DNA of 64,000 nt from Marsupella aquatica. Lineage: Eukaryota; Plantae; Marchantiophyta. The notes under the pieces were generated by a model. The model saw only the letters and a list, made by a program, of their open reading frames with translations. It had not been told where the DNA came from and did no database searches. The stretch spans positions 3,330,490 to 3,394,489 of the forward strand of contig OZ316893.1 in assembly GCA_973895155.1 (NCBI GenBank), written 5' to 3'. Made by a program: the position numbers and the translations under genes. The first letter of the stretch is position 1. Every line of letters starts with the position of its first letter. Positions 1-35,264 of the stretch are shown here, piece by piece.

Positions 1-1813
1 CGTGGCCGCCCCGGGCCCGTTACCAACGGCAGTGGCACTCCCCAGGCCCGATCGGGAGGATGGGGAAGTATCACCTTCCCCGAGTCAGTCACGGGGAAAG
101 AAGAGGAAGGAATCCGCCACTGCATCCGGGTTACCGTTGGCCACGGTAGCCGTAGCCAAGGTGATGATGCACCGCATGGGGGAAAACGTTCACAACAACA
201 TCCTCCATCCCAAGCATGCGGTGTACCTGAAGACTCAGGGATTTGAGCACCTCACCTCTCTCCCCTGGAACACTTGCAGGTACTGCGGGGAGTTCATGGC
301 CCGGAAGGTAGCCTGTTTCTTCAATCAGGAGTTGGTTGCCGCAGTAAAGGCAGGTCGGGCCCAGTCAGAGGCCCTTCAGAGGATAGAGCGGTACCGGGTG
401 GAGTCCGTGTACCTAAAGAACGAAGTGGCAGCTCAAGAGGCTGAGCTTCTGCAACTACGACCCAAGGTTGCAGCCACCAATGAGTTGTTAGCAAAGGCAC
501 ACGCTCTTACCGCCCTAGCCGAACAGGCCAAAGCTGGGAACGAGGCCGAGATTACACGACTCCGGAACCAGATTGACAGTTTGAAGAAACAAGCTGTCAC
601 CTGGCAGAAAGACCTGGAGGAGGCCGAGGAGCGAGCCCATCGGGACACGGCGGAGATAGCCACGTTGCAGGCCGAGATGGTGCGGCTCCAAACCGAGGCC
701 GAGAAGCAGGACCAGCTGGCGGGTAAACTGACGAGCGACGCCCAGCAGCTGGAGGAGGCATGTTAGGAGGCAGCAGAGGAGACGGACGCGGCGAGGCGAG
801 AGAACGAATCTCTGCTGGACCAGGTCCAGCTCCTCAAAGCGGACAATGACAGGCTTCGAAGGCAGCGGGATGGCCGTTCCCATTCGGGCGGCTCTAGCAA
901 GCGTGCCAGGCATTAGCGGCGGAGTAGGAATAGATTAGGATTAGGATTGGCTTAGTCAGGCTCTTGGGACAGGCACCTGCCTTAGGTACAACAGCGCTGC
1001 CCTACTGTCCAGCCTACGTAGATTAGGATCTTCTAATAAGACACAGCCGTTTTCCGGCCTGACTGTCAGCTTAGTTAGGACCTTAGTCAGCGAATCTTCG
1101 GTGAGAGGACACCCCGTCCCTCGGCTCTTAGTATTTAGTGCACCCCTCGGTAGAGGCGGGGGGGGTTTTTAGTTTTAGAGTCGGACATCCGCGGGATATG
1201 CGGGGAGTCCCGACCTCTAGGAATGAAAGAGTACCAAGGGGAGGGGGTAGGACTAAGCTCGCCGGGCGAGTGCGGAGCCAGGCTCCGTTGTAGTGTGCAC
1301 CCTCGGCCTTGAAACTGTTCATTCCAGGGCTGTCGGGTCAACTAAGTGTACGCATATGTTCCCTTTGTAGTAAAATCCTTTCCCATCATTTTCCTTCGTG
1401 TAAATCGAGATTGTATGCATGTGTGCGCATATGTGTGTGGGTTTCTCGTATATGGGTGGCAGCGCCAGGCCGAACGCACTACCCGAGACGTGCACAGGGT
1501 GCAGCCTGCGGGTAAGTGGTTGCGAGCACGGGTTGGGGACCTGTATCATCGAATCCGGATCAAAGGCGGACAGCACGAAGGCTTAGAAGCCCTTAAGCCG
1601 GGGTCGATCCTGCTATTGACTAAGGTACGTTCCGGCGGCGGAACACAAACCATATCTAGGAGGTGTCCGTATTTAGTAGTATACGCACTTAGCGCTAGTT
1701 TACGAGAATAAGGTGCATTACGTGCTTCCCTTCCTGCCCAAACCCTCAGATTTATGAGGGATGTGCCCGTCTAAGCTGAAGTCTGAGTTAAGGTCGAAGC
1801 CTACGACGCGACA
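1..1813 (+). mobile_element. LTR family X, copy 1 (solo or 3' LTR; 5' part outside window; 978-bp internal deletion)
   Basis: Close reverse-complement match to 22065-23586 and ~39392-39683. Ends ...CGACGCGACA at 1813, matching the terminus of copy 2 (GACGTGACA). No PBS follows. Confidence 0.85.
2..916 (+). pseudogene. LTR-X accessory ORF, deleted copy (coiled-coil part retained)
   Basis: Matches the 372-aa ORF up to TCRYxGE, then jumps in frame to FMARKVA of the 474-aa ORF. Premature TAG at 764-766 (CAG in copy 2); natural stop at 914-916. Confidence 0.8.
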
Positions 1814-4800
1814 CCTGCTTTGTTTGTACAGTCGTGACGGAGACGATTTGGAAGTCATGCTCGGGGAGGGTAATACGGCATTATCTAGGGATGGCCCCTG
1901 CAGACCATAATTTAGCTAGAAAAGCTGGTTTGGTTCCATGTTTTGAACTCGACTGGCCCAGAGTTGCAATTCCTGCTGTAAAGGAGTTTGCAGTAGGGTA
2001 TGATCAAGGTCAAAACTGTGTGTCATTCCGGGGTGCAACTCACACATTCAACATAGAGGTATTGCGAGCTGCATTTGCTTTTCCGTCTGGAGAATGGGCC
2101 CAATTTAAACCTGGGTTGGTCCAAGGTCAACTAAATTCCATGTTTTCTGCCAAGACGAAAGGCAACCCATACAGTTTAGACAAAATCACTGCACCATATA
2201 TGCAGTGGTGTGGGATAATCAGGGCGATTTCTGAATTGCTTTCAGGCAAGAGCAAACCCACTCAAATCACCTCAAAAGACATGTGGGTATACTGGGCGTA
2301 TTGGTGGGATACGATTAGGGTACGTGATCGTTTTAGAGGAGCTAAAACTCCCGTGGTGAAGCCCGATTGGGCACATTTGGTGTACGATAATCTGACGAGT
2401 GAGATCCTCAGGTTAAAGTCACACCTATCGAAGAATGGTGTCATAGACAAACGACTTCCTTGCTACTGTGGCACTGCTATAACGCAGATTCTTGTACACT
2501 ATGGGTATTCGCTGGAGGAGCTTATGGTCAAACAACACGAAGATGATCATGAGGAGGACGACAAGGAGGAAGGGGACAATGGCTCACAAGAGGACGAGGA
2601 AGGGGAGGCTGGCTCAGAAGAGGACGAGGAAGGGGAGGCTGGCTCAGAAGAGGACAAGGACGGGGACAGTGGTTCACAGGAGGACGAGGAAGGGGATGAC
2701 GGATCACGAGAGGACGAGGAAGGAGAAGATGGCTCATGAGAGGATGAGGAAGGGGATGGTGCGTCTGACGGTGAGGGGCAGCCATCAGAGGTTGCGCCCC
2801 AATTCTCCAGGGATGAACAGAAATGTCCTCAGGGTGAGCACAAATCGCCGCCCTCTATGCCAGAGTGCATGCGTGTTCTATCATAGCACATACGTGCGCT
2901 AGAGGTTGATCTTGCAGAAAAATCGGACATGCTACAAGAAGCAGTGGAGAATCATAAAAAAATGGTCCTCGATTTGATGAAAGAAAACGACAGACAGAGA
3001 GTCCGCATATTAGAATTGGAAAGGCAGGTTGGGTTGCATTCAGAACAAGTTGGCAGTGAGACATCGAGTGGAGAAGGTGAGAGCGGAGGTGACGAGAGAT
3101 GTTGTGAGGTTCTGGTAGGTCTTGGTGCCAGGGTACATGTAGGTTATGATGCAGAGGCATCACAGCGTAGCCCAATTTCAGAGTTACCGCCAGTTTCTGG
3201 TGTTCTAGCTATAGTAGAGGTACCAGCAGCAGCACCAGCAGAAGCAGGTACTTTCCCAATTTATTATCCTGGTGTTCCAGCTATAGTAGAGGTACCAGTA
3301 GCAGCACCAGCAGAAGCAGGTACTTTCCCAATTCATTATCCTACTTCAAAGATACAGCGAGAGGAGTCTATGTCGAGTGGAGGTGACTCACCAGTTTTGG
3401 TAGAGTTACAGGCAGCCGCACCACCATTACTGGCAGAGGTACCGGCATCAGAAGAAGAGATGTCACTTTTAGAAGGAGAGGCACCAAATGCTGCACCAAC
3501 ATCAAAAGTAGAGGTCTCAGCTACAGAGGAGGACAAATCGTCAGGTGCAATTGCATCAAAAGTACCAGGGTCACCTCCAAGTTCTGTTCTATTTCATGTT
3601 CCAACTAAGAGTCCGGGATGGGAGGCTAGGATGAGTCACACTTCACGACAACCAAATTTTCCTCGTGCTTCAAAGAGAGGGCGAGAGGACTCTATTCCGA
3701 GTGGCAGTCACTCACCAGCGAAGAGGAGGGCTATCAAAGTGGAGGAAGAGGAAGAGGTAGAGGAAGAAGAAGAAGATGAAGTGGAGGATGACGAGCATTC
3801 AGAACAAGACATTCACTGGGAAGAGTGTGCCACAGAGAGTGGAAAGGTTAGCGATTTTTTTTCCTTTGTTGTGTGATTACTGTTTTTTCAGAAACAATGT
3901 TCAAGCATATCTAACTTGGCTATGAGCGGGATCCGCAGATTGATATCCAAGGGTCTCACTTGACAGAGGAGGCATGCCCTCCACCTGGTATAATGACTAC
4001 AGCTCTATATCCACACCAACGGATTGGTCTTGCATGGATGTTGGAACGCAAATCCGGAAAAAGCTCTCCAATTGGTGGGATGTTGGCGGATGACCAGGTA
4101 CAAAAGCCCCCAAATTAAGCCGAAGTCGCACTCATTATTTTCATTCAGCGGGATACTTTGGGGGTATTTTTGGAGTATGTTAGGGGTACGCGTGCACCTT
4201 GTCTGCAAGTGAGTGGGTCCCTGACCGTTTTCTCAGCTTGGATTTTTTTAGGGAATGGGGAAAACCATGCATGTCATAGCGCTATTTCTTGCGAATCGCC
4301 CTCATAAGTGTGGGCCAACTCTAGTTGTTTGTCCAGCCAGTGTGGTGATTCAATGGGGCCAAGAAATAGCTGCAAGGACCTCCAAGATAGCAAAAGTGAA
4401 GGTCCTCCTCTACCACAACAAGAGGAATAAAGACATCAACTTTATTTCAAGCCATGACGTGGTTGTCACTACGTACTCAATCATGACAGGGGAGTCTCCC
4501 ATTGCTCCAAAGATCCAGCGTGCCAAAAGGGAGTATGAAGAGACCTGTAAAAAAACCTAGACTTGCAGGTCCACTGTTTAAGATTAATTGGCTTAGAGTA
4601 GTCCTGGATGAGTGTCATGTCATGAAAAATAAAACTAGTCAAAATTTCAAGGCCTCGTGTTGTCTCAAGGCAGAGAGGAGGTGGTGCCTAAGCGGTACAC
4701 CCATACAGAACGAGGCTTCTGATCTGTTTCCTTACTTCATTTTTCTGAGGTATTATCCTCTAGGAGAGTGGAAGGAATTCTCGCAGTTAAAGAAGCTGCT

Positions 4801-6620
4801 GAAGACAAGGCCAAAGATAGCGAATGACATCCTCTCAAAACACTTGGTTGCGATTGCGCTCAGGAGAGACAAAAGCAAGCGTGCATGCATATATCATGGT
4901 AGAGTTCACTTTGTTTAATCCCAAGCCTGATTTCTTTATCAATTGTGCATTTACCCTGCCACTGTGCTTACATGCAAGCATACTCCCACTGCCCCCTAAG
5001 ACGATCGAGGTGCAAATTGTTGAATGGAGAACACAGCAAGAACGAAACGCTTATTTTGATCACTGGGAGGAAAAGAGTAAGGAGTTATACAAGGTACGTA
5101 AGGCTCTTAATAATCCCCAATGTTGAAGACGTATGAGAGTTCAATTTGATCCCTTGAAGGTGTCTGTTTGGTGGCAATTAATGTGCCTGTAATGTTGTAG
5201 GAATTCCGTGACGCCGAAAGAGGTGCCTTATCGAATGTGTTGAGCGTTCTGCTCCGGTTGCGACAATTTGCAGTGCACCCAAAACTTCCTTCCTTATGTA
5301 AAATTCGCGAAGAGGAGATCAGGAACAAAGTGCAAAGAACGCCCCTTAGTGAGCCTCAACGAGCCCGACTCGTGTCAGAGTTTCAGCAATTGAAGATTGG
5401 AAGTGCTTGTGTGGACTGCAAGGTGAGTACAGTCACTCTGTGTATGGGGTATGATTGGGGTATGATTGGGGTATGATTGAGGTATTGCAGTTAACGTGCT
5501 TTGCCTAACAATTTCTGCACGCACTCACTTTAACGGTTGGATTGTGCAGGGGGGCTTGATTGGAAGTCCATTTCAGATTTCTGGCTGTGGCCATGTATAC
5601 TGTGGCATTTGTGCAATAGACCGGGAAGCTGGAACCTGCAAATCGGCAAAATGTTCAAAATACGTGACAGCCCAGGTCCTATACAGGCCAGCTGTTTGAG
5701 GCTAGTGAATGGTGGTGCGGAGTCAAAAGGGAAGGCGCGAAGAGAATATGATGTCCGACACCCACCTTCTCCAAAATTTGATGCAGTCTTGGAATACCTG
5801 AAGTCGATTCCGTTGGACACTACAGGACAGGGCAGCAGCAAAAGCTTTGTGCCCAGGCAGAAGGCTCTTGTTTTCTCACAATGGACTTCGTGTCTCGACA
5901 TGCTTGAGCCACACATTCTGAAGGCTGGTCTAAAGTTCACAAGGATTGATGGAGGAATGAATTCCAATGTCAGAGAACAAGCCTTGAATGATTTCAAGAC
6001 AACCCCAGAGGTACAACCGTCATTATCCGTGCAGATCGGTGTCTGTATTTGTTCAAAGGGTAAACTCTTTATATTCTAATTAAACTATTTCTACTCATTT
6101 CATGCAGATCAGCATTATCCTCTTGTCCTTGATGGCAACGAACACAGGACTCAACATCATTGAGGCTACACATGTTCTTATGGTAGACGGGTGGTGGAAT
6201 CCCACGGTCGAGGACCAGGCCATTGATCGGTCACATCGTATAGGGCAAACAAGGCCGGTGAAAGTCGTCAGGTTTATCGCCGAAGATTCGATTGAGTTGA
6301 AGATTTTGGAGCTGCAGGTAAGATTAGAAGTGCTTGCGTGGACTGCAAGGTGAATAAAGTCACTCTATGTATGGGGTATTATTGGGGTATTATTGGGGTA
6401 TTTCAGTTCGCGTGCTTTGCCTAACAATTCCTGCACGCACTCACTAGTAATGATGAATTACGAATTCCATATATGTGGTCTCTAATTGTACGCATGTTGC
6501 ATGTTTTGTGCAGAACAAAAAACGAGTGATGATCAGGGACATCATGTATGGCTGTGCAACCGGGGAAAAAGATAACATGGAACAAAATCTGGAGGTCATA
6601 CTGGGAGAGAATTGGTAGTA
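1814..6620 (+). pseudogene. Fusion of a TE accessory-type domain, acidic/coiled-coil linker and SNF2-RING helicase (FRG1/FRG2 = CHR27/28, Ris1-like)
   Basis: 1834-3846 is one frame with two stops (TGA 2737, TAG 2884). It is spliced (GT 3847/AG 3938; GT 4098/AG 4251) to LYPHQRIGLAWM..GGMLADDQ|GMGKT, then PTLVVCPASV, WLRVVLDECH, RRWCLSGTPIQN, LLRLRQ, RING (CVDC..CGHVYCGIC..C..C), KALVFSQW, WWNPTVEDQAIDRSHRIGQ. Frameshifts near 4550 and 5699. 5' end cut by LTR X. Confidence 0.85.
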
Positions 6621-7238
6621 GAGGTTCAATGCATCAAAGTAGCTAGATGAGTTTTAGCTAAGGTTCTCTTCGGTGCTTGAGTCAGTTAGGCAGTGACACT
6701 CTTACTGTTCGTTTACTTGTCAGTGCCACTCTCGTTTCCTCCCGTTATGATTTTAGTGTAGCGGGACAACGATGAGACTAGGAGGACAGAGCTTGAGTGG
6801 GTCTTTCCTTGCCACATATGTACCTGTTCGAGCCTCCTGCGGGAGCATTATGAATCGAACACTTCATATTTGAATCATGTCCACTGTTTCTCATGTCCAC
6901 TGTTTCTTTGGTATTATTTCTTGTGTTCTTTTGTGTGTGTTTAGGGTTTAGGTTATGCACTTGCAAGACACGCCGAATGATTACCCTAGGGACATAGGTA
7001 ATTTACAAGCATAGTAGCCCGTCCACTACAAGGAGATTTGGTTCCCTACTAAATATGGGACAAATACCTTACCATGAATCGCTTTGATAAGAGGGGAATG
7101 AATTCCCAACTCATCTTCTGGAAATTACCCCCAATAGTAAGGGGGCGGGGAGCATGAGGTACGTTGGGGTTAATTTCCCTACTTACCCCCTATATTCCCC
7201 TCTTTCAAACTCCTAACCTTGCAGATCTTCCTTGTGCA

Positions 7239-7724
7239 CAACCTTGTAACCCAACAAATAATGATGATACTTCTTACAAGCGTAAATGATACCAAGAGCC
7301 TCCCTATCGGTAGGTGAGTAGTTCTTCTCTGCCGGGGCCAACTGTCTACTGGCAAAGTAGATGGGATGGTCCCTCCCATCCTCATCCAACTGACTCAAGA
7401 CGGCACCGATGCAAAATCCTGATACGTCTACGTAAATGTGAAACTCCTTATTCCAATTAGGCGTAATGAGTATGGGAGCCTCTAGCAAACGTTTCTTTAG
7501 TTCATCAAAAGCAGCTTGACGGGGAGGAGTAGGTTCAAATTCACTTCCCTTCTTCAACATGGATGTGAGTGGCATGGCTACTTTGGCAAAGTCCTTGATG
7601 AAGCGGCGGTAGTAGCCGACGCACCCCAAGAACCCTCTCACTTCTTTCACATTTTTGGGAAACGAGACTGCCACCCACACTGCCACCTTTTCACGATCCA
7701 CCTTGATGCCGCGAGCAGACACCT
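7239..7724 (-). mobile_element. pol: Ty3/gypsy RT-RNase H fragment of family Y
   Basis: Nearly identical in protein to element Y 30185-30670 (VSARGI..FLGCVGYYRRFI..VDVSGFCIG..NYSPTDREAL..GYKVV). Truncated on both sides at TG/CA-like junctions. Confidence 0.9.
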
Positions 7725-9204
7725 TGTTGGAGAAGTTCTCTTTTTGAAGAACCTACAAAACCGGGATCAAAAGATTCAATTACTTTATTGAAGAAAAGAA
7801 AAAGAAAAACATCATGTCTAAATCTTTGTGAGCCAAGAATACTGAACAAGACTCCAAATATTTGTGAGCCAATAATCAAAAAGATTCAATGGGAAGAGTT
7901 AACCCAAGGATCTTCGTTCCAAATTCGACAACACAAGTATGCCAATCGATGATACTTGTTTTGATCATCACGACAATAATTACACAAAGAATCAACAGAA
8001 TGCAGACAACCACTCAAATAAATTCTTGACTGAATTGGAACTCCTTGCTCATTCTTTTTGCAAAACTCAATCGGAGCGGATTGAGACTATCTCGAGGATC
8101 TACGCCTCCCATCCAAAGCGCTCCTAATCCAACAGGAAGCACTTTGAGTTCAACTAATCTCTTATACAATCGACATGCACGTTTATCTCGGTTTTGAATC
8201 TGGACCGTCATTGAACTCACGGTTGAAAATGTAAGTCTCAAAGAAAGCTAAAGCTTTAATAGTTCATCAAGTGCTCCAAAATGGCAGGCTCGAAGGAAGC
8301 AAGAGCTTTTGTCAAGGTTGATCAGAACCTAGCATGCAAAACCATCGTCAATACTTGAGATATCTTTCGCCATCGCAAAAAAGCTATTGCTGAATACCCG
8401 AAGGGATACGCCGTATCCCACTTCGCATTCAAACTTTGCCTTTCGGACCTAACCTGATTGATATTCAGAGGTTGAATATCATATGGGATACCGGGTATCC
8501 CACTTCGCATTCAACATTGAAATTTCCTGCATTTTTCAACCAAGAGCTTCTTATGTAGAGGTTGGATGCGAAGTGGGATACCGGGTGTCCCACTTGGCAT
8601 CCAACCTCTTTTTCTCATGTTTCGTCATGCCATAACTGGATTTTTCAAGATTGAATCCCAAATCGGATACGCCGTATCCCATTTGGGATTCATCCTCGTG
8701 ATTTCCAAAAAGATATATTACTCACCTGTTTTTGTAGTCTAACTTGGGGGATACGAATATGCATACAGAGTGTGGATTCGTCGGTAGCAAGCGAATGCGG
8801 GAGCAAGAAGAAATGAGACAAAAAATTTAAGTCGGGGCTCTCCTATTTATAGTTTCCCCCCGACCATGATCAGTTTCTAACCATAGTTTCGTCGAAGTCA
8901 ATTAAAAGTGACCGTTAAAAGGAATCCTCTAGGAATATTTTTGATGGGTAAACCGTACTCACCCCTTTTTATTGTGTTTGTTGGTTTTTTTTTGTTTGAA
9001 AACTGCGGTTGGATCCAAAATGGGATACGCCGTATCCCTGCTTCGGATTCAAGTCATTTTTTCCCGTTTTAAAAATCTAAAATCTGGGTTATTAGAGGGA
9101 ATACTAATTCAGTATCCAATACTTTTTTGCCTTAGAATTTTTTTCCGCCGCGGGCAAAACGAGAAGTGTGGTCGTTATGTTTACCAAAGTTTTACCTACC
9201 AATA
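7725..9204 (-). mobile_element. Putative LTR-like repeat with palindromic GGGATAC-N3-GTATCCC motifs
   Basis: Starts TGTTGG where pol homology ends. Minus-strand TATAAATA at 8844-8851. Five copies of the hairpin motif at 8400-9040. No TSD found; right boundary tentative. Confidence 0.35.
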
Positions 9205-9738: not shown

Positions 9739-10445
9739 AAAATCGTTTTTATCCTGTGTTCATGGATTCTGTTTGAAGGCAATTGACAAAATGAGAACTG
9801 CCCAGAAATTAAGCTAGTGTAGAGGAGGGACAGAAAAAAGAGGACAAGACATCTCGAGAACCATAATCGAGAAGGTAATCTGAGTCCAGGCACCAAGCTC
9901 TTCTCTAAATGACGAGATAATTAAAAACATTGTACAACAATGCTTTGTGAACGGGATTTGTTCCCTTTACTGTTCAGGGTGGAAGTGTTGTTCTATCAGT
10001 TTGCGTTTTAAGCACCATTTACGGGCTTTACACATAAAAATTATCATGGTCGATCTTTTGAAAGTTGCGGTCTGAAGTTTGTTCTTTTTCAATTCTTCCA
10101 CTTGATCCGAGAGAATCGAAACACTGTCAAGATGTACTTATTATAATCATAGGAGTACGCTCGGAGAGATCACAGAGCAATATTTAATTCAGGATTGTCA
10201 CATCTCATGACAACTCAATGTGTACACTGCTTTTTTGTCTCCATATGGCAATATGTGTTTTTGATGAGTGCTCACATTACAGTGCTGCAAATTTTTGATG
10301 GCGACTGATCATATGCTTCTTCTCCGGAGCTGTCTAATACAGTAACTTCTATTCCAAAAAGCATCACATCTGGAACCGTTTTAACAGGTGCGGCATGGAA
10401 TTCGGCCAGATGGACACGGATGTGGGTGACTGTCATACACTGAAT

Positions 10446-13226
10446 TCAGCCTTTTTGACTATCTGTTGCCTCAGCAGACTTACCCTTCTGAGGAAGGTAC
10501 AACTGGTAATTGTACTGGTAGAAGTATGCCGCGACTAGAAAGACTAGAAAGTCTACTCCACAAATGGCGGCGAGAACCCAGTAGTAATTTTCGAGACCAC
10601 CGTCGTTGAAGCGCTCGACCAACCAACGCCCGCCTTTCTGATGCTTGGTCACACTGTTGGTGACATTCACCAGCACCGAGCTGAGGTAGTAGCCCAACGA
10701 TAACGCTGCGAACGAAAACGTGATCCCGATGCTACGAGTGTTATCCGACACCTCATGGTAGAAGAACTTGTAACTCGCCAAGACGACCCCAAACTCCGCC
10801 ATGGAAGTGAAGAAATACTGCGGAATGAGCCAATACATCTTCATCGGGAGCTCGAAGAATAGGGAGTGCGTGTATCCCAGATCGCGAACGTATCCCAGCC
10901 GCTTTCTCTCAACAAGTGCGGCGACGACCATGGCCAAGCACGTTGAAATCAGCCCCAGTCCGATACGCGTCAAAGGGGTAATGCCGAACGGATTCTTCGT
11001 CATCTTCGTCAAAATTGGCCGAATGATAAAGTCGAACAGAGGTACAAAAACAACAGCGACGATAATTCCAGCCACACCTAGAGATTGCGCGGGTAGAACG
11101 AAGTGTTTGCTCAGAGCCCGGTTGAGAGTTTGGCCCTGCTGTGCCGTGAAGGTAATCACCTGGGAGAACAGAAGGGAAACAGAGCACGTGCACGTCCAGA
11201 CCGGCACGATCAGCAGAATTCTCTTCGTTTCTTCGACCTGCGTCACACCAGCTAGCCTCCACCGATTCCCCGTGCTTGCTTCATTCTCTATGATTGCCGC
11301 CCTGTCCAGACCTGCATTGGTTGGGGTTGAATCGAACAAACTCATCAGTGGCCGTTTAAATTGACTTTGAAATATATCGGTGCGTTAATGTGCTCACCTG
11401 TGTACCTTTAGATTCGTTCTACAACCCCATTGTGGCTTCTACATACCTTCAACTCTGCTTCATTTGATCATTTGCTGCAGATTTCTGCATTGAAACAGGT
11501 CACAGTACAATCCCAGACTGACTCCAGCTTAGATTAATCAAGTGATATATAATTACATTTCCCCAACCTCAATTCAATTGAACGACGATCCGAGAAGGAA
11601 ATCGCGTACTACCGTAGCTTTGTTGATCTTTCCAGCCAATCTCCAGAAATGGGAGCGTCGTAGAGACTGCTAGTGGCTTCGGGAATGACCAACTTCCGCT
11701 TTGGAAAGGTCGCAACTGCTACCTGTACCATGCGCGTTATGAAGAGCCTTCCCGAGGGCCTCTTGAGTCGATACTTGGGCGTACCGACGAGGAAGATTAA
11801 GAACGCCACTACGAACAATATCAGCAGCCAAGCAAATCCCCAATGTTTGCTCACGTAACTGAGAATGTAGACAGGGAGGGTGAACGAGGTCAGCAGACCA
11901 AGGTTCTGAGCAAAGTAGTACCAAGTGAAGTAATGCACACTTTGCTTCTTCTCTACTGGGTCCGATTCATTAAATTGCTGAGCCCCAAGCGCAGGTAAGG
12001 CTGCTTTGACGAAGCCAGATCCAAGAGCTATGGTATACAGAGCAACATAAATTGGCGCCATGTATTTTGTTCCTGCCTGCGGGCACGGTGCCGTCGGCGT
12101 TGGCGTACAGGCTGGAGGCTGCAGCCCCGAATAATCGGAGGTGACGACGAGAACCCCCAGTCCCTGGATTGCCAAAAGCATCTCAAGATTTGAATCAACA
12201 AGAAGTCTGAGTACACATATTTCTTCACGCCACGCATTTCGGGAGAGTGGATAGCAAATTCTCAATCTCTTAAATAGAAGGTTTGTTCAGCAAAGCACTA
12301 TGTGACAAGACTTGAAACTGAGCATGTCCATCTGAACATGAAACAAACCACTACAGTTATGGACTTTCGAAATCATAACATTTCTAGCTTTTTAAGATTG
12401 AATTATGGATGAATGTACTGCGATGGAACCTCCACGGTCACATATACTTAAACTAGGATCTTATACTTCTGCACGAACTTGACGGTAATGAAACGTAAAG
12501 TGTGCACTACGAAGTTGAGCTGGTATTACTCGTGCATGACGCCGACAGACTGCGCTTGTAGAATGCATTCATTAGAGTTGAACTTACAAGTATTTGGATT
12601 ACTGCGCCAACGACAGTTGTAAAGTAGTACCCTAGATAGCTGTCTGCCAGGAAGCCCCGTAGCACAGAGACAACAAAGTAGGTGCCTGTGAAATCGTTGG
12701 CGATCGTTCCCGCATTGGAAAAGCTCTGGTGGAGATACTTGTTAAGGTAAAACAACAAACCGACTGTGAGGGAGATCGAACAGACCGAGTCCGCAGTGGT
12801 TAAAGCTGCAACAAGATCAAAAATGCCCCAAATCAGCCACTGTGCGTCATACCACCAGACCTTACATTAACTAGAATCCTACATACTGTAGGTATTGTAC
12901 ATAAAGCTACAATCGCGGAAGGAAGAATAACATATGGGTCGAATAGAGGCACTAGTGATTCTGCATTATTTTTCGGAGCGGCAATCGGACGTGTTTTCGA
13001 GCTTTCTGAAGTTAGGTCGAAGGTCTGATCAACCCGTGCAAATACCATAAACATATATTGCGGCACTCATTCGCCCAGTTCTTGATTTGTCGCTTAGACG
13101 GCCCCTCAAAGTCACTGCATCCGAATGTGTGCCGTCCACATATTTTTTGCTGGTATTTCCAGGATCCTCCACGTCGTGCTGGCCTGAAGGAACAGGAGAA
13201 GGTGCGGAATGGATTTGTTGAGACAT
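10446..13226 (-). CDS. NPF: NPF/PTR (POT) family transporter, copy 1 (possibly frameshifted); exons 13226-13046, 12805-12588, 12163-11613, ~11311-10446
   Basis: GFLADSYLG, LYTIALGSGFVKAALPALGAQQF, QVEETK, ITPLTRIGLG, MVVAALVERKR, WLIPQY, FFYHE motifs; GT-AG introns; paralog of 48460-51258. Confidence 0.88.
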
Positions 13227-14105
13227 CTGCAAGGAAGCATGTTGAAGATTTCCAACAAAAGAGACAGCATTAGAAACATTCTCCTGAAACGAGAAACAAA
13301 TCCGTGATACGAGTATGCTTAATTGAAAATCGATTCCTTGCGAAAATCCAGGACTATCATGCATGGTTTAAAAATACGAGGTGAATCACGGTTGCAAATG
13401 TTGGCCATGGCACGTAATTAAGGAAGTGCTCAGAACAGTTGTGCCGAAGATTACGCAGGAACCCAAGCTCCAATTCCTTTCAGTCTCATGACCAGACATG
13501 CTCGCTCTCGCTTTCACAGTTTACGCTTGAAGTGGCTCACATTTACACGCAAAAAGAAATTGCAGGTCATTCGGGGTCTCGAATCAGTTTTGAACGTCAG
13601 GGATGACAAGAAGTCAGTGCTGTTCTTCCAATTACAATTTTTCCGGACTTGCAGAGAGAAACTTGAAGAATGGATGAGAAAGTTAAACAGACCATGAATT
13701 TACTTATATAATCACAGACTCTCGTCTTAAGATGAGCTCCTCTTTTCTGATAACCGAAGTTTACTCAAAATCGGACTCCTAGACAGCTGAAGGGCGTAGA
13801 CACCTACCACTGGAGATTCCAAATATCAGTACTCCAGATGAAAGATATCGATCAGGTTGCCTACTCTGAACGATGTCAGTGCGTTTTCTCCTGCATATCG
13901 CAACTTCGTTGCTACTTGTCCAAGCTAAAGTAGAACTTACTGAGGCCAAGAATGATAGGTTTCTGGTCTATAAATCCTCTTACGTGTGGACTTGGCTTGG
14001 TTTTGAGACAGCAAGTCTTTCCTTCGACGAGGCTATGGCAGATCTTGAAAATATATATTATTCAGGACTTAGCTACTTTGCAGTGTTGCCCGGATCCTCT
14101 CTCTG

Positions 14106-16081: not shown

Positions 16082-19000
16082 CCTTTGACATAGATTATAG
16101 CCATGAGTTTCATATCCACATGATGAGCAATGGAGTTAGGGTCTAGAGGCTTTACTCTAGAAGCCTAGGCCCCAACTCTAGTTTGTAGTTGGCTCTTTAT
16201 AAATAAGATATACTATTCCTCTTGCTAACCAAACAATAAGGAATTTAAGTGACTTTTTAAAGATTCATTGCTATTAATAATAATTCTACAACCACTGATC
16301 GAGTGGCTAAAGATGGCTTTGCTAGAGGCTGGGCTCAATAGTTTTTTCTTCCCTCACATATTAAATCTGAAGTGTAATGAGTGTAAAAGGTTGCACTTGG
16401 CTTTACTTGAATTTGGGGGCCATTCAAGTAAGGTGTCTATGCATCGCAAGCAGTGGGACCAAGGAAATGGTGATATGTAATGGTTTCTTTATTTGTCTAG
16501 AATTATTATAGATCACCTCCAAAGGTGATTCAAAGATTTCCAACCTTTGACTCCTTCATTCAAGGGATTGCCAATTATGGAACTTGAGTCTATGAACACT
16601 ATTGCTTTGATGACAAAAGTCACAAGTGCTCCGTCTTGATTTTTGGTGCCGAGTCTATCTTTCTAAAAGGAAGTGCTTTGGTATCAAGTGCCCAAAGTGT
16701 TGTAAAGGTAGATGATCTGCATTGGGAGACTCTCACTCTAGTATGCAACTCTTGTATAATAGGCAAGGGTCTAGATTTTTATATGGACTAAAAAGTTGTA
16801 AATTTTACTTTTCAAATTTTATGACTAATATATAAAGTTTGCTTTTCTTGTTTTTCCACATAAGATTACAAAACAAATCTATATTTTCTGTAATTTTTAT
16901 TAAAAATGTTGAATTTTTTTTTAAATAAAAGTAGTAAAATAGGGACTAAAGTTTGGCTGTCTACCCTTCTATATATTAAAAAAAAGGACATATAATTTGG
17001 CTTTTAAAAAGTTTTGACGCATCAACACAAGTTTTTTTTCTTCTAAACTTAAGTATTTGGATTCTTTGAATTTAAGGTACAAGAGTTCAGTAGACTAAAT
17101 GAAATTTCACATGTCAATTTGGCATAAAGTTATTATAAGGAATTAAAAACTTGCCTTGTAAAAAAGTGAGTTGCTAGCCAAGAGAGGCATGGCTGTGTGA
17201 TAGCTCAGTGACTCATATGTGAATTGTGACTGACTGGTCACTTTGTGTGGGGTTTCACAGATTTCTCCTTCAATTTATTAAAATAAAAAAAGTGAGTTGC
17301 ATAAGGGGTTTTGACTAGACTCCTCGCATGCTTGCTAGGTGTGAGGGGAAGCAATAAACCAGACTTGTCAGCGTCGGCCATCTTTCCAATTTTGGAGGTC
17401 CACAAGCTAGACAGCGTATGTGATGCAGCTACATGCTACATTATTTGAGAACGATTATTTTAGACTTTGGGGATTTGGATCGACGAGCCCTTCTTAGTAC
17501 GAGACTATGCATACAGGTTTGGATCATCTTCTTGTCTGGATCAACAAGCCCGGACCATTTGAATCTCTTCAAGAAGTTGTGGAAAAATATGAGGATCTCC
17601 ATATATCTTGGCGAACTCCATTCCTGGGCAGATGCTTAAGCCCGCTCTAAACTGAAGGAACAAATATAGGCTTGGCCGACAGCAGCAGAACCTGGATGGC
17701 TCATAGATGTCTGTGTTTTTGCGAGTGTTTTCAAAGAAAGCAGGTTGTTTGTAAGTTTGACCTGTCTTGACTCCAGAATGTCTGCATGTGCACAACAGCA
17801 GCCAAGGAATCAGCAGAGCTTAAAATTCAATGTGAGTAGCAATCAGGCCACGGAAACTCAAAACACAAATCTTCTCAATTCGGAACATGTGCCAACCTTT
17901 CTGCCCCTTTCCTTAACACTTAAGACAAAGTCGGATGATTAATCTTTCATATACAGGAACCTGCATCATCTAGTTTAAAGGTATATCGTACATAAAATAT
18001 TTTGAAACGGAGTTTTGACGTTGATAGTTGGGGGTGAATTTGACCTTGAATTAATTTTCAACAGGAAATTTGGACTACGAGAAGAACAATCATGGTAAAG
18101 ATAAAGGTAATCTCCCGGATAATCTGTTCTAAGTGGGATGACGATAGAAATAACCAAGGAACAAGACAATTTTTTATAGGAAAGGGCCAAACAAAGTATA
18201 ATAGAATAAACAAAAGAGTTTCAAAGCCAAACAAAGTACAATACACCAAACATGGGACCAATTAAACAAAAGAGGTCCAAGGCTTACAGAATCATGTGCT
18301 CATTGTGTTGACTACTTTGTATGGTGTTTAGTTTTGAGTTTGTTTAGACGTTCCCCAAAAAAGCATTTTTTTGTGATTTTCTCACATGAGTGACTCGGAG
18401 GAGACTCGGAAAATCGACGTCGGTGAAGCTTTAGATTTGCGTCGGTCAGATGTAGTGTTTGAAGAAGAGCTTGATTGTATCATTCGAGGAGGAAAGAGAG
18501 TCACCGGTACAATCACTGGTGCAGCGGGTGGAGGAAGCAGTCATACTACCGGAGCTAACGGTAGTTGTGAAGAAAAAAAAGATGGCTTCCAAGTTGGGAG
18601 GTGTCAAGTTTGAGATGGAAAAGTATGATGGGCGTACGTACTACTTGCTCTGGGAGAAGCAAGTGAAAGGAGTTTTTTGTGCTATGGGCCTAGATCATAT
18701 TCCCTCTATGCGAGAGATGTACGATGGTGAAGAGGAGACTCCATTGAAGAGGTGGAGACACGAACAAGTGATTGCATTGAATACAATGATGCTTTATCTG
18801 AAGCCGCATATCATCAAGAAGTTGGAAACTATGAAGATTGTGCATCTTTGTTCAAAGCCGTAAGAAAAAAGTACTATTGGAAGGATGCCTCAGACCGATT
18901 ATACAATAAGTCTTTCTTGATGAGCCTGAGGCTCAAAGATGGGAACAAGCTTCAAGATCACTTGGATGAATTTGACAGCCTAGCTGTTGATTTGCCTAAT

Positions 19001-20041
19001 CTTGGTAAACGCGTTGAACAAGAGGACAAGGCCTTGCTTCTTTTCAACTCCTTACCCCCATCTTATCAGGGTTTGAAGAAGGATCTCTTGTATAGAGACC
19101 TGAAGTCTATTTCTTATGATGAGGTGATAAGCTCTTTGTTGTCAGATGATGCACACAAAAATTGGGTCAAGCCCAAACACCATCTTCATCCGATACTGCA
19201 TTAAATGTGAACCGTGGGAGGTCTACGCAACGGAAAAATGGAGAAAACAAGTTTAAATCTAAGTCAAGGGGGAGATCTAAATCTAGAGGAAAATAGCAAG
19301 AGCGAAAGCCTCTTGCATGTTGGAGATGTGGCAAGCCTGGCCACATGAAGAGGGATTGTCGGATAAAGGAGTCTATCGCATCAACTAACGCGGCATCAAG
19401 TGCACATGAGGTAGATTTACTCGATGATGACATTTTATGATGCCGAGGTTTTTCTCTCAACGTAGTGTCACATCCAGGTAATGATGACTAGATACTAGAT
19501 AGTGCATATCCTTTTTACATTTGCGCTAGGAAAGATCTTTTTTGAACATTCTTACACGGTTTCCAACGGTTCAATGTTGATGGGAAATGAAATCCCATGT
19601 CAAGTGGTTGGACTTAGATCTGTGAGATTTCAGATGTTTGATGGTGTTGTGAGAACGTTGAGAAATATGAGATATATTCTCAGCATGATGAAAAATCTCA
19701 TTTCACTTGGAGTGTTAGAAGCAAATGACCATCAATGGAGTTCTGCTAATAGCGTCCTTCAAGTTTCAACTGGTACTAAAGTTGTGTTGAAGGAAAAGAG
19801 GCATAAAAATCTATACATTTTGGAGAGCAATGTAGTCTGTGATGAAGCCAATATAACTTTATCTCATGAGGAGACGGCCCAGCTGTGGCACTTCAAATTG
19901 GGTCACATGAGTGAAAAAGGTTTGGTTGTTCTTCAGAAAAAAAGATTACTTTCTAATTTACAATCTTGAAAGCTAAAATTTTGTGAGCATTGTGTGCTTG
20001 GAAAGCAACACAAGAAACCCTTTGGAGTTGGAACTCACACT

Positions 20042-20339: not shown

Positions 20340-22959
20340 CTCACACTAGCAAGGAGGTACTTGAGTATGTACATAGTGATGTGTGGGTACCAGCCCCTAC
20401 TCCTTCACATTCTGGAAAAGTTTACTATGTCACTTTCATTGATGATTACTCAAGGTGTGTGTGGATTTACTTTCTACACAATAAGCCTGATATTTTTGCC
20501 ACTTTTGAGGAATGAAAACCCAAGTTGAAATCAGATTGGTAACAAGACGAGATATCTTCGATCGGATAACGGTGGTGAATACGATTCTGGTGAATTTGAA
20601 ACCTATTGTAAAGAGCAGAGGATTACACGTCATCTCACAACAAGTTATACTCCTCAGCAGAATGGTGTTCTGAGAGGCTCAACCAAACACTATTGGAGCG
20701 CTCGAGGAATATGTTGAGCCAATCATGCTTACCACATGAATTTTGGGTAGAAGTTTTCAACACTATAGCTTATTTGGTAAATTTCTCTCCATCCAGTGCA
20801 TTGGATCCCTAGGCCCTTAGCTTACGTAATCCCGGAAACACGTGCGCTCGCTTGAAGGGTATTTTTAATCCAAATTCGGGTAATAATTATAATTCAATTC
20901 TAATAACCCAACCCGCAACTTTATGCAAATTTGGGTTTATAAGAAATAAGGGTATTTCCAAAAGGGTGGCATATTAATTCGGCCAAAGGGATCCTATAAT
21001 ATATGTGATATGCGCAGGGACACACATCATTATATAAATGGTCCATGTGTCAAGGTCTCATTCGAACACTTGGGCAATGTCTTATATTTCCATTTCTATG
21101 GGTGTGCCTATCCCAAGGTACAATAATTTTGGGGGTTGGAGGGGGGTAAGTTTGGTATGTTGGTTCGTATGTTCACCCAAGAATGGATCCGGGAAAACCT
21201 CATTTGAAACCTCAAACTTGAGCCCCGACTCGAGCAAACATCATTTGAAAGGGGGGGGGGGGGGTTTAGGCCCATTTAGGGTTTTGTCCTTCGTCTCTTG
21301 GCTGCGTTCATTCTTGTCCTTGATGCCGCCTTCAATGACACCTTTGGTGTTGACAGTTTTTCCACGTTTGGGCGTGAACGGTGTGCGCTCCCTATGCCCG
21401 GCCTCCATTGAACCTCTTTGCCATAGCTGCTACCCCCGTTGCTGCCGTGTTGAAGGTCGTTGAAGCTCCTCGTTCGCCATCGCCAAAGCTCAAGGCGAGC
21501 CCGGATTCCAATTTGATGACTAGTGTTGTACCAACACACTTCTTGCAACAAATATTTTGGCGAGCTGGATTGCCTCTTGGGTGGCCTGCAATCTGTTGTC
21601 CTACAAACTCGCCTACAAATGATGATGGGGATGAGGATGAGGATGATTTTGATGTCAAGATTCTGTTCAATTTGTGTGATGATAGTTCTATAGCCCATTC
21701 TGTAGTTGGGGGACACCCACTGGATACTTTAGTGTCCCAAGTAAGTCCTTCTATTAGTACACTTGCACCTAGATAAGTTGTACCTTAGCTCTCTGGTTTG
21801 TAATCCCGTTAAGTTTGTAATAGTCTCTCTAGGCCAATGTACCGTGCAGGCCCTATGCAGGTAGTACCCATGCTTGTGGGGATGTTTCTACTGCCCACCT
21901 ATCTTGCCTAGTCTTGCCTATACCGGTTTAGCCAGACTGGTAAAACATATATAAATTGTATGCATTATTGTATGCTCCACTGGGATCCCGCTAAGTATGA
22001 TCATTTTGAAAAAAAAAACTTATATTGTATCTTGTATCTTATAAGTTAGCCCTATCTTGGGGTTTGTCACGTCGTCGGCTTCGGCCTTAACTCAGACTTC
22101 AGCTTAGACGGGCACATCCCTCGTAAATCTGAGGGTTCGGGCAGGAAGGGAAGCACGTAATGCACCTTATTCTCGTAAACTAGCGCTAAGTGCGCATACT
22201 GCTAAATACGAACACCTCCTAGGTATGGTTTGTGTTTCGCCGCCGGAACGTACCTTAGTCGATAGCAGGATCGACCCCGGCTTAAGGGCTTCTAAGCCTT
22301 CGTGCTGTCCGCCTTCGATCCGGATTCGATGATACAGGTCCTCAACCCGTGCTCGCAACCACTTACCCGTAGGCTACACCCTGTGCACGTCTCGGGTAGT
22401 GCGTTCAGCCTGGCGCTGCCACCCATATACGAGAAACCCACACACATACACGCGCACATGCATACAATCTCGATTTACACGAAGGAAAATGATGGGAAAG
22501 GATTTTACTACAAAGGAAACATATGCGTACACTTAGTTGACCCGACAGTCTCGGAATGAACAGGTTCAAGGCCGAGGGTGCACACTACAACGGAGCCCGG
22601 CTCCGCACTCGCCCGACGAGCTTAGTCCTACCCCCCCCGTTTGGTACTCTTTCATTCCCAGAGGTCGGGACTCCCCGCACATACCGCAGACATCCAACTC
22701 TGAAACTAAAAACCCCCCCTGCCTCTACCGAGGGGTGCACTAAATACTAAGGGCCGAGGGACGGGGTGTTCTCTCGCCGAAGATTCGCTGACTAAGGTCC
22801 TAACTAAGCTGACAGTCAGGCCGGAAAACGACTGTCTTATTAGAAGATCCTAATCTACGCAGGCTGGACAACATGGCAGCGCTGCTGTACCTAAGGCAGG
22901 TGCCTATCCCAAGAGCCTGACTAAGCTAGTCCTAATCCTAATCTATTCCTACTCCGCTG

Positions 22960-24513
22960 CTAATGCCTGGCACGCTTGCCAGAGCCGCCTGAATGGGAGC
23001 GGTCATCCCGCTGCCTTCAAAGCCTGTCATTGTCCGCCTTGAGGAGCTGGACCTGGTCCAACAGAGATTCGTTCTCTCGCCTCGCCGCGTCCGTCTCCTC
23101 TGCTGCCTCCTGACATGCCTCCTCCAGCTACTGGGCGTCGCTCGTCAGTTTACCCGCCAGCTGGTCCTGCTTCTCGGCCTCGGTTTGGAGCCGCGCCACC
23201 TCGGTCTGCAGCGTGGCTATCTCCGCCGTGTCCCGCTGGGCCCATTCCTCGGCCTCCTCCAGGTCTTTCTGCCAGGTGACGGTTTGATTCTTCAAACTGT
23301 CAATCTGGTTCCGGAGTCGTGTAATCTCGGCCTCGTTCCCAGCTTTGGCCTGTTCGGCTAGGGCGGTAAGAGCGTGCGCCTTTGCTAACAACTCATCGGC
23401 GGCTGCAACCTTGGGTCGTAGTTGCCGAAGCTCAGCCTTTTGAGCCGCAACTTCGTTCTTTAGGTACATGGACTCCACCCGGTACTGCTCTATCCGCTGA
23501 AGGGCCTCTGACTGGGCCCGACCTGCCTTTACTGCGGCAACCAACTCCTGATTGAAGAAATAGGCTACCTTCCGGGCCATGAACTCCCTGGTATCCCGGG
23601 CAATTTGATGAGAGAAGTCTCCCAGAAGCCCATTCAGAAATGTACCCGGTACGAAGAGTTCCGGGTGGTCCAGGTTGTGTCTATCCGGAGTTGGGCACGG
23701 GCAGACGTCAACACGTGCGGGGGCCGGGGCAGTGACGTCCAGCCCTGGGGACGTAACGTTGGAAGGGGCTGGAGTGTCCTCCTGCAGCAATGTCCGGTTC
23801 TCCAGAATAGCCACCGATGGGTCTTTGGAAGAACCGGGCTCGGGTAAGACCTCCGCCGTACCGACTTCTGTACTTAGCCCGGCTTGTTGGGTCGTATCAA
23901 CGGTTGCGACAACCGACCCATCCGGTACCTCCTTGGTTACGACTACAGCTACTTGTGGAGGTGGGGTGGGTGAAGCTGGCATGTCCGCTGGACTTCGGGC
24001 CTCGGGTTGGGGCCGTCTCTCCAAGGCCGGGAAAACCCACCTAGCTGGGACCAGCTTTGTAACGTTGACACGGGGAAGGGTTCGTCGATCAAACCGAGCG
24101 TACCACTCAAGAATGATCTCGATGTGGCTAGCGAAATACGCCTTCCCGCCAATGTACAGCGTCTTCCTTCGCCGCTCCATCTCTTCATGGAATTTCTTAG
24201 CAAAGTACGACGCCCACCTCCTAGGTTGATAGTTCTCGACCTGGATAACCTGGGCGGCGGAGATCTCTCCCCGGGGTTCCATCATGTGGAGGGCGTACCT
24301 CTGGAACTCCAGTCGCTCAGCTATCTCGGGGATGAGACAGGTCCTCATCACGAACCCGTTGTCCACTGCTCCCTCTGAGGGAAAACTTGAAGATTGGTAC
24401 TTGGCTCCCTTGCCCCCAGGAGCTCGTGATTCGACTCGATGGTCACCTTCGGGTAACCCGAAGATCATCCTGAGCCGTTCTTCCGTGAGGGACATACTCC
24501 TTCCCCGCAACCG
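22960..24513 (-). pseudogene. LTR-X accessory ORF, 3' part (conserved domain, P-rich linker, coiled coil, basic tail)
   Basis: In-frame continuation of the 40426 ORF across the Y insertion (YDDARQHT|RLRGRSMSL). Premature TAG 23128-23130 (CAG in copy 1); true stop 22960-22962. Confidence 0.85.
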
Positions 24514-25630
24514 AGTATTGTCACTTGCCTCTCCAACGGTTAATACGTGCAAACCGCACTTTTCTTCGCTTAAACCGTTGGTATCGTATTACGGGGTCGT
24601 GGAGGGACGCTATTTGGATTCTTTTCACACCAGGATGAGTATTTTGGTTTCCGCTCCCGGAAATGTAGGTTTTGATCAAGTCTACCGACTACCCTCACCC
24701 CACAGCTTTTGATCAAGTCCTGCCGACTACCCCACTACACCTTCACTCGGAGTCACCCAAAGAGTGCTGTCACCACCCCTACTCACAAGGCCGACTCAAA
24801 CCAAGCAAGTTTCTTCAAATCATAGAACGGGAGAACACAATTCGGAAAGCGAAAAAGGGAGAAGGAACACACAACAAAAGCCCATCAAGTCAAATGTACA
24901 GATCCATATCTCTTGGGAAAAAACGATACACATTGCATGAGTAACCCGGCCTCCTGCCGTCTACTCAACTCCTGCCTCTCCGGACAATGAGTATGGCTCC
25001 CCCTCACTACTCTGAACACGCTTTCAAACTCCTCAGGCTCCACTCTATCCCTCCTTGCTAACTTCACACTGAGTCCCCCTAACTACTTCGGGGCTATCCC
25101 CCTAAATACTGAAAAATCACACCAAAGCACCCCTCACAGGGTCACAACGGTGGCGGCTACCCTAGCGGCGCCGCTAAAACCTTGCACTAAGAGAAATCCT
25201 TAAACTGAAGAGGAGCATGCGGCACACACATGCTGCTAAAACCCTAAACCCAAAACAAGGGGGCCGACGGTGCCTTCGACGGCGCCCCAACAGTACACGT
25301 GAACCCTGAAAGTGAGAGGCACCCCAAAATGGCCGAAACTAGGTGCCCTTCCAAGTGCACACCTGAGCTCACCCCTGGATAGCTCTTCTTTTCCTGCTTC
25401 CGAATCACTAAGTCGCTCCCTCAACGGACTTCAGACGCCTGAGTTATGGCCGTTTCCGTACCGCAAAAACATAAGTTCTCCAGGCCATAACTTGCTCATC
25501 CTGGCTCCGTTTGAGGAGCGCCGCCTCTTGTTGGAATCAGCTCCGCGAGCTCATCCCAACAAGCCCATGAGTGACCCCCCACTAAAATGTTGGAAATCTG
25601 GAGGCCGTACACCCACGTCCGTACGCCTAT

Positions 25631-27487: not shown

Positions 27488-27904
27488 CCATGCATCCCGA
27501 AATCAATTTCTCAATCACCAATCCCGTCACCCGTGGCAATGTCAATTCCCTGGCCCGAAACAGCCCCCGTAGCCCGATCACTTAAATTCTCTCAATTTCC
27601 CGTCACTACTCCGTGCGGCCGCCACTAATGCCTGGAAGAATGACGCCAGCAAGCCCCACTAATCCACCATGAAAGAGAGAGCTTCAAAAATAATTAGAAT
27701 CTGGAGAGAGCTTCCGGCAAGAGAGAGAAGAACCCCGTTTTTGCTTTCGGCAATGAGAGGGTCGTGCAAAAGGAAGAGGGAAAGAAAAAGGAAGGAAAAA
27801 AAAATAGAACCGAAAAAACTCCTGGCGCCTTCGCCATGCGCCCCGGCCCATTTCTCGGGCCTTACCCTTGCGTCCTCCTGCGCGCGGCCCTATGCAGGGC
27901 GCGC

Positions 27905-28282
27905 GGCCATTCCTCCCGGCTCGCGGGAGGCCCTTCAACTCCCCCCCGCTCGCGTGATCCTCCCAGCTCGCGGGAGGCCCTTTAACTCCCCCCCGCTCGC
28001 GTGATCCTCCCAGCTCGCGGGAGGCCCTTTAACTCCCCCCCGCTCGCGTGATCCTCCCAGCTCGCGGGAGGCCCTTTAACTCCCCCCCGCTCGCGTGATC
28101 CTCCCAGCTCGCGGGAGGCCCTTTAACTCCCCCCCCCCCCGCTCGCTTGCGCTCCTTCAGCTCGCGGAGCCTCATTAATTGCCCGGGCACGCAGCCCTAT
28201 GGGCTCGCGAGGCAGCCCCTTCAGCTCGCGGAGCCCCATTAATCGCCCGGGCACGCAGCCCTATGGGCTCGCGAGGCAGCCC
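27905..28282. repeat. CpG-rich tandem arrays in LTR Y (47-bp unit x ~5; ~64-bp unit x2)
   Basis: Unit GTGATCCTCCCAGCTCGCGGGAGGCCCTTTAACTCCCCCCCGCTCGC; one unit fewer in the 5' LTR (38650-38980). Confidence 0.9.
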
Positions 28283-28610
28283 CTCTTTCTCTCGGACGGC
28301 CACTAATGGGACTCGCCCTCCTGAGGAGGGATTTATTTAAAAAAAAACCCCCCCCTCTCCTGACTTTGCAATGGGGGTCTCAACAATAGCTCTTGAAGCA
28401 AAACGGTAAGTCCTATGGGGCTGGTCCTGGCTAGTTTCAAGGTCCCAAAATATTTGCCCACTTAGGTCGCCGCAAATCTTAGAACTATTATGAGAGAAAG
28501 AATATAAAGTCACCTGGGGCATCATCAACCTATAATGACGGAATTAACTAAAAATTAAAAAATGGCTTATTTACATTGACTATTAACAAGGTATCGGCCT
28601 TTGCAACCAG

Positions 28611-35009: not shown

Positions 35010-35226
35010 CCCATTGAGACCTGCATTCCAAACTTACACCAATGTCTCAGAAAGCAATATTTGTAAACATCAACCGTCGCACGATGCGTTGTGGTTGACG
35101 TACAATAACAAAGTAACCAACAAACTTCTCACGTATCAACCGTCGCAAGTTGCGTTGTGGTTGATAGGTTTGAACTCCCAATAGACGTAGCTCCCCTCCT
35201 TCGTGTCGTCAAACAAGAAGAAGGAT

Positions 35227-35244
35227 TCCCCGGCAGCGGCGCCA
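35227..35244 (-). promoter_or_regulatory. Primer-binding site, tRNA-Asp
   Basis: TGGCGCCGCTGCCGGGGA, complementary to the plant tRNA-Asp 3' end (..UCCCCGGCAACGGCGCCA, one mismatch); Athila-type PBS. Confidence 0.85.
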
Positions 35245-35264
35245 AAAACAAAAGACCACACTTA

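Follow-up and report, generated by a model that had tools for sequence, protein, structure and literature searches.

A decayed, probably transposon-borne gene predicted to join a putative accessory domain to a Ris1/FRG-family SNF2-RING motor in Marsupella aquatica

The 64,000-nucleotide stretch of Marsupella aquatica DNA analyzed here (contig OZ316893.1, positions 3,330,490 to 3,394,489 of the forward strand; hereafter, the window) contains, between positions 1814 and 7238, a broken gene predicted to join an N-terminal domain to an SNF2 ATPase with an internal RING. Our tentative reading is that this is a decayed copy of an accessory gene that belongs to a transposon and likely exists in many copies—a probable plant-mobile-type domain predicted to be fused to a Ris1/FRG-family SNF2-RING motor, borne by a DNA transposon and possibly acting to loosen silenced chromatin—though our confidence in this combination as a whole falls short of even. 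Its parts differ in strength: it is probable that the gene is transposon-borne, and equally so that the N-terminal domain and the ATPase form one fused protein; a DNA transposon is favored only slightly over a long terminal repeat (LTR) element as the carrier; and an anti-silencing role, proposed by analogy, comes close to an even proposition without reaching it.

The gene opens as a single frame, running from an ATG at 1891 to a GT donor after 3846, that encodes a domain of ~210 residues, acidic repeats, a coiled-coil-like stretch (called by eye only), and a linker of low complexity. This N-terminal exon is predicted from the sequence to be spliced, across a 92-bp GT-AG intron in phase 0, to seven more exons starting at 3939. 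Pfam matches on the downstream exons comprise SNF2-rel_dom (E 1.2e-14 and 2.5e-20) and Helicase_C (E 9.9e-7 and 4.5e-9), with a RING match (zf-RING_5, E 0.004) that lies under the curated cut-off; ATPase motifs I–VI in both lobes and all eight RING ligands align with Arabidopsis CHR28, the RING sitting between the lobes. These matches bear out the first-pass annotation in its description of one frame that can splice in phase (3846/3939) into an SNF2 ATPase with RING. That annotation was also right to call the copy decayed: stops interrupt the frame at 2737 and 2884, the frame shifts near 4513 and again near 5694, intron 3 has a GC donor, and two further stops lie at 6616–6621. As a separate observation, intron 7 contains a segment (6320–6445) that is an 84% copy of 5393–5529, the exon end before intron 5 together with that intron's start; this repeat portion is skipped or replaced in contigs of sequencing runs X3, X4, and X5, and is therefore variable among copies.

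The motor resembles the plant FRG family throughout its length. Its 637-residue ATPase part (with an X at each joint) aligns end-to-end with plant CHR27/28-type proteins at about 32–37% identity. Of 7991 candidates scored with a profile of exon 3, 1647 reached E 1e-30; among the best 120 of the 1647, most of those named are plant proteins, many labeled CHR27/CHR28. Three unnamed database proteins (P0001–P0003) are closer, at 55–64% over the query exon, and stop at the same exon boundary, while no annotated plant protein above ~46% to the lineage formed by these three and the window copy was retrieved. A look-up of protein clusters likewise found no entry in the collection for any of the four window open reading frames (ORFs) queried (4/4), and P0001–P0003 were unnamed there. 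A metagenome scan with the window exon gave no match, and one with P0001 gave 50 loci, 49 at 21–30% and one Rad16-like, with the N-terminal domain in none. The Rad16-like locus (L049, 9593–12245), an SNF2 gene in pieces on a metagenome contig, was used only as an outgroup.

A tree of 23 rows—the window copy, three loci, and 19 proteins out of a set of 124, with plant RAD5/RAD16 rows absent—groups the window copy with P0001–P0003 (91/100). The stem of this clade is long, at 1.31 changes per column, and the motifs are nonetheless intact. Thirteen host plant rows form a clade that excludes this lineage (99/98), an exclusion that long-branch effects might produce. FRG1/CHR27 and FRG2/CHR28 act with SUVR2 in RNA-directed DNA methylation (PMC8171942). 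The motor had first been identified with these proteins; its membership of the Ris1/FRG-type SNF2-RING proteins holds, but derivation from FRG1/FRG2 does not follow, and in the tree the lineage stands as sister to the 13 plant rows (66/89) rather than nested with CHR27/28. On sequence grounds the motor is thus FRG-family-like, and not demonstrably an FRG1/FRG2 derivative. The introns are a line of evidence independent of the tree. Three of the seven fall exactly at host positions: intron 2 sits at DDQ|G, intron 5 follows the first CxxC of the RING, and intron 6 precedes motif V. A fourth, intron 3, is about a codon or less from a host position; the comparison covered four of the seven introns, with host positions inferred from database entries that read through into the intron. 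Because three introns coincide exactly with host positions, capture probably took place at the DNA level, the motor having most likely been taken up as genomic DNA.

For the N-terminal domain, comparisons centered on proteins encoded by two other elements of the window. LTR X occurs as a solo LTR with its own long ORF (22065–24518 and 39344–~40890, minus strand; duplication AACCC), split by the gypsy element Y (24519–39343, minus strand; duplication AGTAT). Element Y is young, with an open 2140-aa gag-pol and LTRs of 4128 bp each that are 98.8% alike; each of these encodes a 623-aa ORF, with identical translations that match no Pfam family above cut-off. It is unusual for an LTR to contain a protein gene. 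The first-pass annotation had aligned the first ~230 aa of the fused gene with the LTR-X protein by eye, and this likeness is marginal. Over the first ~210 aa the motifs are collinear, with a local z of 2.5–3.3 and a phmmer E of 0.016 (two targets); an end-gap-free BLOSUM45 alignment gives z 3.9, equaled in 6/2000 shuffles and 0/3000 real-protein decoys. Under BLOSUM62, however, there is no signal (1353/2000 shuffles score as high), and the hhalign probability is 14.9%. Scores against the LTR-Y protein are as high as against LTR-X, with z reaching 4.0, and the two LTR proteins compared with each other give z 3.3; such values would be compatible with distant kinship of all three within a single family.

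The proposal that this domain is a transposon accessory likewise stands as a leaning. In ESM Atlas, a Transposase_32 (PF20167) cluster ranked third at 0.89, with 140/256 features shared, and an ATHILA-containing cluster (PF03078 on 17% of members) scored 0.88, values that, being below 0.9, are a lead only; nine of the ten best family-bearing matches fall in one family or clan. The LTR-X piece matched unnamed streptophyte clusters and DUF1985. A single-sequence fold of the N-terminal domain was uninformative (pLDDT, the predicted local distance difference test, 36), and a search for homologues among longer proteins, which is weak evidence, found none at E 0.001 among 773 candidates. The domain leans toward transposon accessory families, which it resembles weakly. 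PF20167 is related to ATHILA ORF1, both having been described from gypsy elements (PMC11728184), and the plant mobile domain is found in both gypsy elements and Mutator-like elements (MULEs; PMC9289625).

A transposable-element setting had been proposed at the outset, and both the nested transposons around the gene and the signs of many copies in sequencing runs agree with it. Seven runs contain part of the stretch, four of them with 53–55% of its words, which corresponds to about 2% divergence. Between 1922 and 7196, covered bins number 25/25 in run X3, 24/25 in X4, 25/25 in X5, and 21/25 in X6. In run X3 a single place can have as many as 13 contigs (depths of those listed, ~76 to 2000), and depth is similar over the N-terminal domain and SNF2 bins (3798 vs. 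4507). At 14 of 31 listed places within 1814–7236, both exon-1 stops included, the window copy's letter is absent from X3; the window copy thus seems to be missing from that sample, in which its relatives are plentiful. Because four runs cover the fused gene, two of them with many variant contigs, a multi-copy element is indicated; many copies are likely, and intact ones plausible. Twenty-one read differences were classed (from 40 of 524, leaving out stop-codon places), of which 19 are coding, eight synonymous and 11 not, giving no firm word on selection.

The class of carrier turns on the right junction, the tail, and the introns. The sequence TGTGCA, ending at 7238, had been taken as an element end abutting a cut gypsy pol; it does abut a gypsy reverse transcriptase (RT)–RNaseH piece, but an element end is not demonstrated there. 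Because the pol match begins at 7237, the last CA belongs to both sides, and a GTG (7234–7236) directly precedes the match. Three readings fit this junction: an LTR end at 7238, which needs a 1-in-16 coincidence; an EnSpm-like (CACTA-type) terminus whose GTG finishes at 7236; or a joint left by a deletion, with 2 bp of microhomology. The second and third readings fit at least as well as the first, EnSpm termini being 5′-CAC..GTG-3′ (PMC12730594). The pol piece differs from element Y at 49 of 491 bp, with 40 synonymous vs. six non-synonymous codons, and is by its sequence a sister subfamily of Y; because it is stop-free and its differences from Y are mostly synonymous, there is no clear sign that it predates the gene copy. 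A telo-box at 6941 had been likened to one after the ORF in LTR Y. Such a box is present (6940–6951), but the motif has five window matches vs. 0.33 expected, and it was rejected as an LTR marker because two of these (14499, 21275) lie outside LTRs X and Y. A Helitron end was also rejected, the junction being no A|T site and having no CTAG end.

The leading alternative, which we regard as unlikely but the best of the rivals, places the same fused gene on a gypsy LTR retrotransposon, either within a very long LTR or as an antisense extra gene. The ORFs of LTRs X and Y each have an N-terminal domain and a coiled-coil-like region, the three domains are weakly alike pairwise (z 3.3–4.0, BLOSUM45), and the CA at 7238 can be taken as the end of the tail. 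PF20167/ATHILA domains, moreover, are extra ORFs of gypsy elements (PMC11728184), and the neighboring pol piece lies on the opposite strand and is little decayed, as would suit the antisense extra ORFs of such elements (PMC7264820). At the DNA level, however, the tail resembles neither LTR X nor LTR Y (nothing beyond 13–15 bp at E 1.4 or worse), and the terminal CA is also pol's own. The X and Y ORFs are uninterrupted by introns—that of Y lying on the gag-pol strand—whereas the fused gene has seven sense introns, three at exact host positions. Repeated rounds of reverse transcription would be expected to remove introns on the sense strand. Their retention over a long branch thus favors a DNA transposon or an antisense retroelement gene, in which introns would survive by lying on the other strand; antisense extra ORFs do occur in plant gypsy elements (PMC7264820). 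An LTR carrier resembling X or Y, as first envisaged, is disfavored by the tail, the introns, and a junction that fits other endings.

Several results weigh against a multi-copy fused gene on a DNA transposon. The N-terminal domain, whole or in halves, matches no Pfam family at E 10 and occurs in none of 123 retrieved SNF2 proteins, and its PF20167/ATHILA likeness favors an LTR carrier. No transposase was found above cut-off in 51 window ORFs or pieces scanned, and no element end or target-site duplication in the window. Summed contig depth does not equal copy number, and several contigs per place could also come from pooled or polyploid samples. The longest listed contig is 459 bp, and none joins the N-terminal domain to the ATPase in another copy. 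The N-terminal domain bins are deeper than the SNF2 bins in X4 (3723 vs. 1314, with 57% of this run read) and in X6 (9.2 vs. 1.4). No difference at the 4513 frameshift was seen in X5 (0/17.8), and the letter that X3 and X4 have at the 2737 stop was not seen in X5 or X6; for these reasons, intact copies are unproven. The position of the lineage as sister to the plant FRG rows is also one at which long branches meet; because of this, and because plant RAD5/RAD16 rows are absent from the tree, the donor gene is not fixed.

Some of these results would suit a family of FRG-like host genes that has expanded and evolves fast—its first exon domesticated, or the unit being two neighboring genes—and happens to lie in a transposon nest, an explanation to which we give a low probability. 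The exon–intron structure is host-type, host NPF transporter genes lie 3 kb away, neither transposase nor element ends were found in the window, and no single contig spans the fused gene. However, there are many variant contigs per place, and the absence of the window copy's own letter from X3 at 14/31 places is as for a non-shared insertion. CpG content is low (observed/expected 0.48–0.63 in the fused gene region vs. 0.73–0.81 in the two flanking stretches measured), a transposon junction lies at each edge, and the ~46% ceiling among annotated plant proteins also argues against a host family. Least probable of the alternatives, though the chief rival as regards mechanism, is a transposon-borne motor that serves transposition itself, as a translocase or repair factor at excision or integration sites or through ubiquitin tagging: RAD5 is the best eukaryotic solved-structure match (E 4e-19), Inton and Enton SNF2 proteins have been proposed for transposition (PMC3627910), and a role linked to RNA-directed DNA methylation is not deducible for a lineage outside the sampled host FRG clade, but the DDQ and WWNPT.EDQAIDR motifs and the intron positions are those of the FRG family, unlike the Rad16-like L049, and the architecture parallels that of VANC and KIU.

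Table 1. Features of the fused gene and its immediate neighbors, in window positions.
Feature	Positions	Strand	Basis or remark
LTR X, 3′ part	1–1813	+	94.5% identity to 22065–23588 (inverted), 93.6% to 39386–39683; context only
Upstream remnant	1814–1890	+	Possible splice acceptor ~1831; sequence and inference
N-terminal domain, likely Transposase_32/ATHILA-ORF1/plant-mobile-domain type accessory	1891–2517	+	ESM Atlas lead, marginal pairwise scores
Acidic 30-bp repeats (2537–2776), coiled-coil-like stretch, low-complexity linker with basic cluster	2518–3846	+	
Predicted intron 1	3847–3938	+	GT-AG, phase 0
SNF2 exon, Q motif to GGMLADDQ	3939–4097	+	
SNF2 exon, motifs I, Ia, II (DECH), III (SGTP)	4252–4878	+	Frameshift near 4513; following donor is non-canonical GC
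SNF2 exon, LPPK region	4979–5093	+	
SNF2 exon, LLRLRQ motif and first RING CxxC	5201–5422	+	
Remaining RING and start of second ATPase lobe (motif IV)	5550–6010	+	Frameshift near 5694
SNF2 exon, motifs V and VI (WWNPTVEDQAIDRSHRIGQ)	6108–6317	+	
Last coding exon	6514–6621	+	Two terminal stops in window copy
3′ tail	6622–7238	+	Telo-like box 6940–6951; 15-bp inverted repeat 7120–7134/7164–7178; junction 7236/7238
Gypsy RT-RNaseH fragment	7237–7727	−	90% to 30183–30673; Pfam RT_RNaseH; stop-free; context

The window as a whole is plant DNA dense in nested transposons, together with two NPF transporter genes. LTR X adjoins the fused gene at 1813/1814 and probably interrupts it; the unit begins at 1814, as had been marked, but because LTR X (1–1813) ends there this is no natural start or element boundary, and the true 5′ end of both gene and element is cut off. 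One contig of run X6 ceases matching at 1814, as expected if other copies have no LTR X there. In the copy of LTR X at 1–1813, an internal deletion has removed most of the N-terminal domain of its protein. At its far edge, from 7726 onward, the pol fragment is truncated by sequence beginning TGTTGG, which we take to resemble the start of an LTR. The NPF/POT transporter genes are duplicated (10119–13926 and 48132–51968, 88% alike) with the transposon nest between them. Copia gag, pre-integrase, and RT pieces flank solo LTR X (18731–19966; 42202–42591) and possibly belong to one interrupted element. A 1.3-kb unit at 43500–44770 contains two inverted 24-bp repeat arrays, resembling the subterminal repeats of non-autonomous DNA transposons.

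Several known systems resemble the fused gene in part. The closest published design is KIU, found in MULEs without terminal inverted repeats, in which the VANC anti-silencing protein is joined to Ulp1, a captured domain (PMC13317346). VANC has a structural relationship to MAIN, and coiled coils are predicted to multimerize both VANC and the Athila domain (PMC13547354). VANC and KIU are known anti-silencing factors of plant transposons that remove methylation. The window gene would share with KIU a transposon accessory domain joined to a captured host enzyme domain and a proposed role in escape from silencing; however, its captured part is a whole SNF2-RING motor, not Ulp1, and its N-terminal domain leans toward PF20167/ATHILA. 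Arabidopsis FRG1/CHR27, FRG2/CHR28, and EDA16/FRG4 (Ris1; PMC8171942) share with it the SNF2 with internal RING, the DDQ and WWNPT.EDQAIDR motifs, and intron positions; unlike these, it has streamlined loops, a DECH motif II, another N-terminus, a long-branch lineage, and signs of many copies.

Transposon-borne SNF2 genes are already known, and this chimera is an unusual variant of accessory genes with captured chromatin enzymes. The Inton and Enton DNA transposons likewise carry SNF2 helicase genes, though these are not described in the available text as plant FRG-family proteins or as plant-mobile-domain fusions (PMC3627910). Among retroelements, the extra ORFs of gypsy elements (ATHILA ORF1/PF20167 and antisense ORFs) are a possible family for the N-terminal domain (PMC11728184, PMC7264820), though the window gene differs from them in having seven introns. 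The orchid AlkB found in plant gypsy elements is a host enzyme fixed by retroelements that may counter silencing (PMC9289625); SNF2 does not appear in the main text of that 121-genome screen for extra domains. A literature search of titles, abstracts, and passages (main texts only) found no plant case of a transposon in which an accessory domain is joined to an SNF2-RING of the FRG type.

Under the preferred reading of a DNA-transposon accessory gene, the motor would have been taken long ago from a host FRG-family gene at the DNA level, an age and route we infer because introns were kept and the lineage sits on a long branch, and would have been kept functional by selection. By analogy with VANC, the N-terminal domain may pick out the element's own DNA or chromatin, with the linker multimerizing the protein; the ATPase would then shift or evict nucleosomes or silencing complexes, which the RING might ubiquitinate. 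The window copy would later have been interrupted by LTR X and then decayed. A bolder version—that a plant transposon lineage present in several species took a remodeler of the host's FRG silencing family and joined it to a sequence-specific domain, making an element-targeted chromatin opener and so turning a part of the silencing pathway against it—strikes us as rather unlikely on present evidence. If it is true, however, such a natural fusion of accessory domain and remodeler would be direct evidence that chromatin is what these domains act on; the targeting of ATHILA/PF20167-type domains would become testable, and a natural sequence-targeted remodeler would be gained. It would also mean that a host silencing gene family has been recruited by the opposing side of the conflict.

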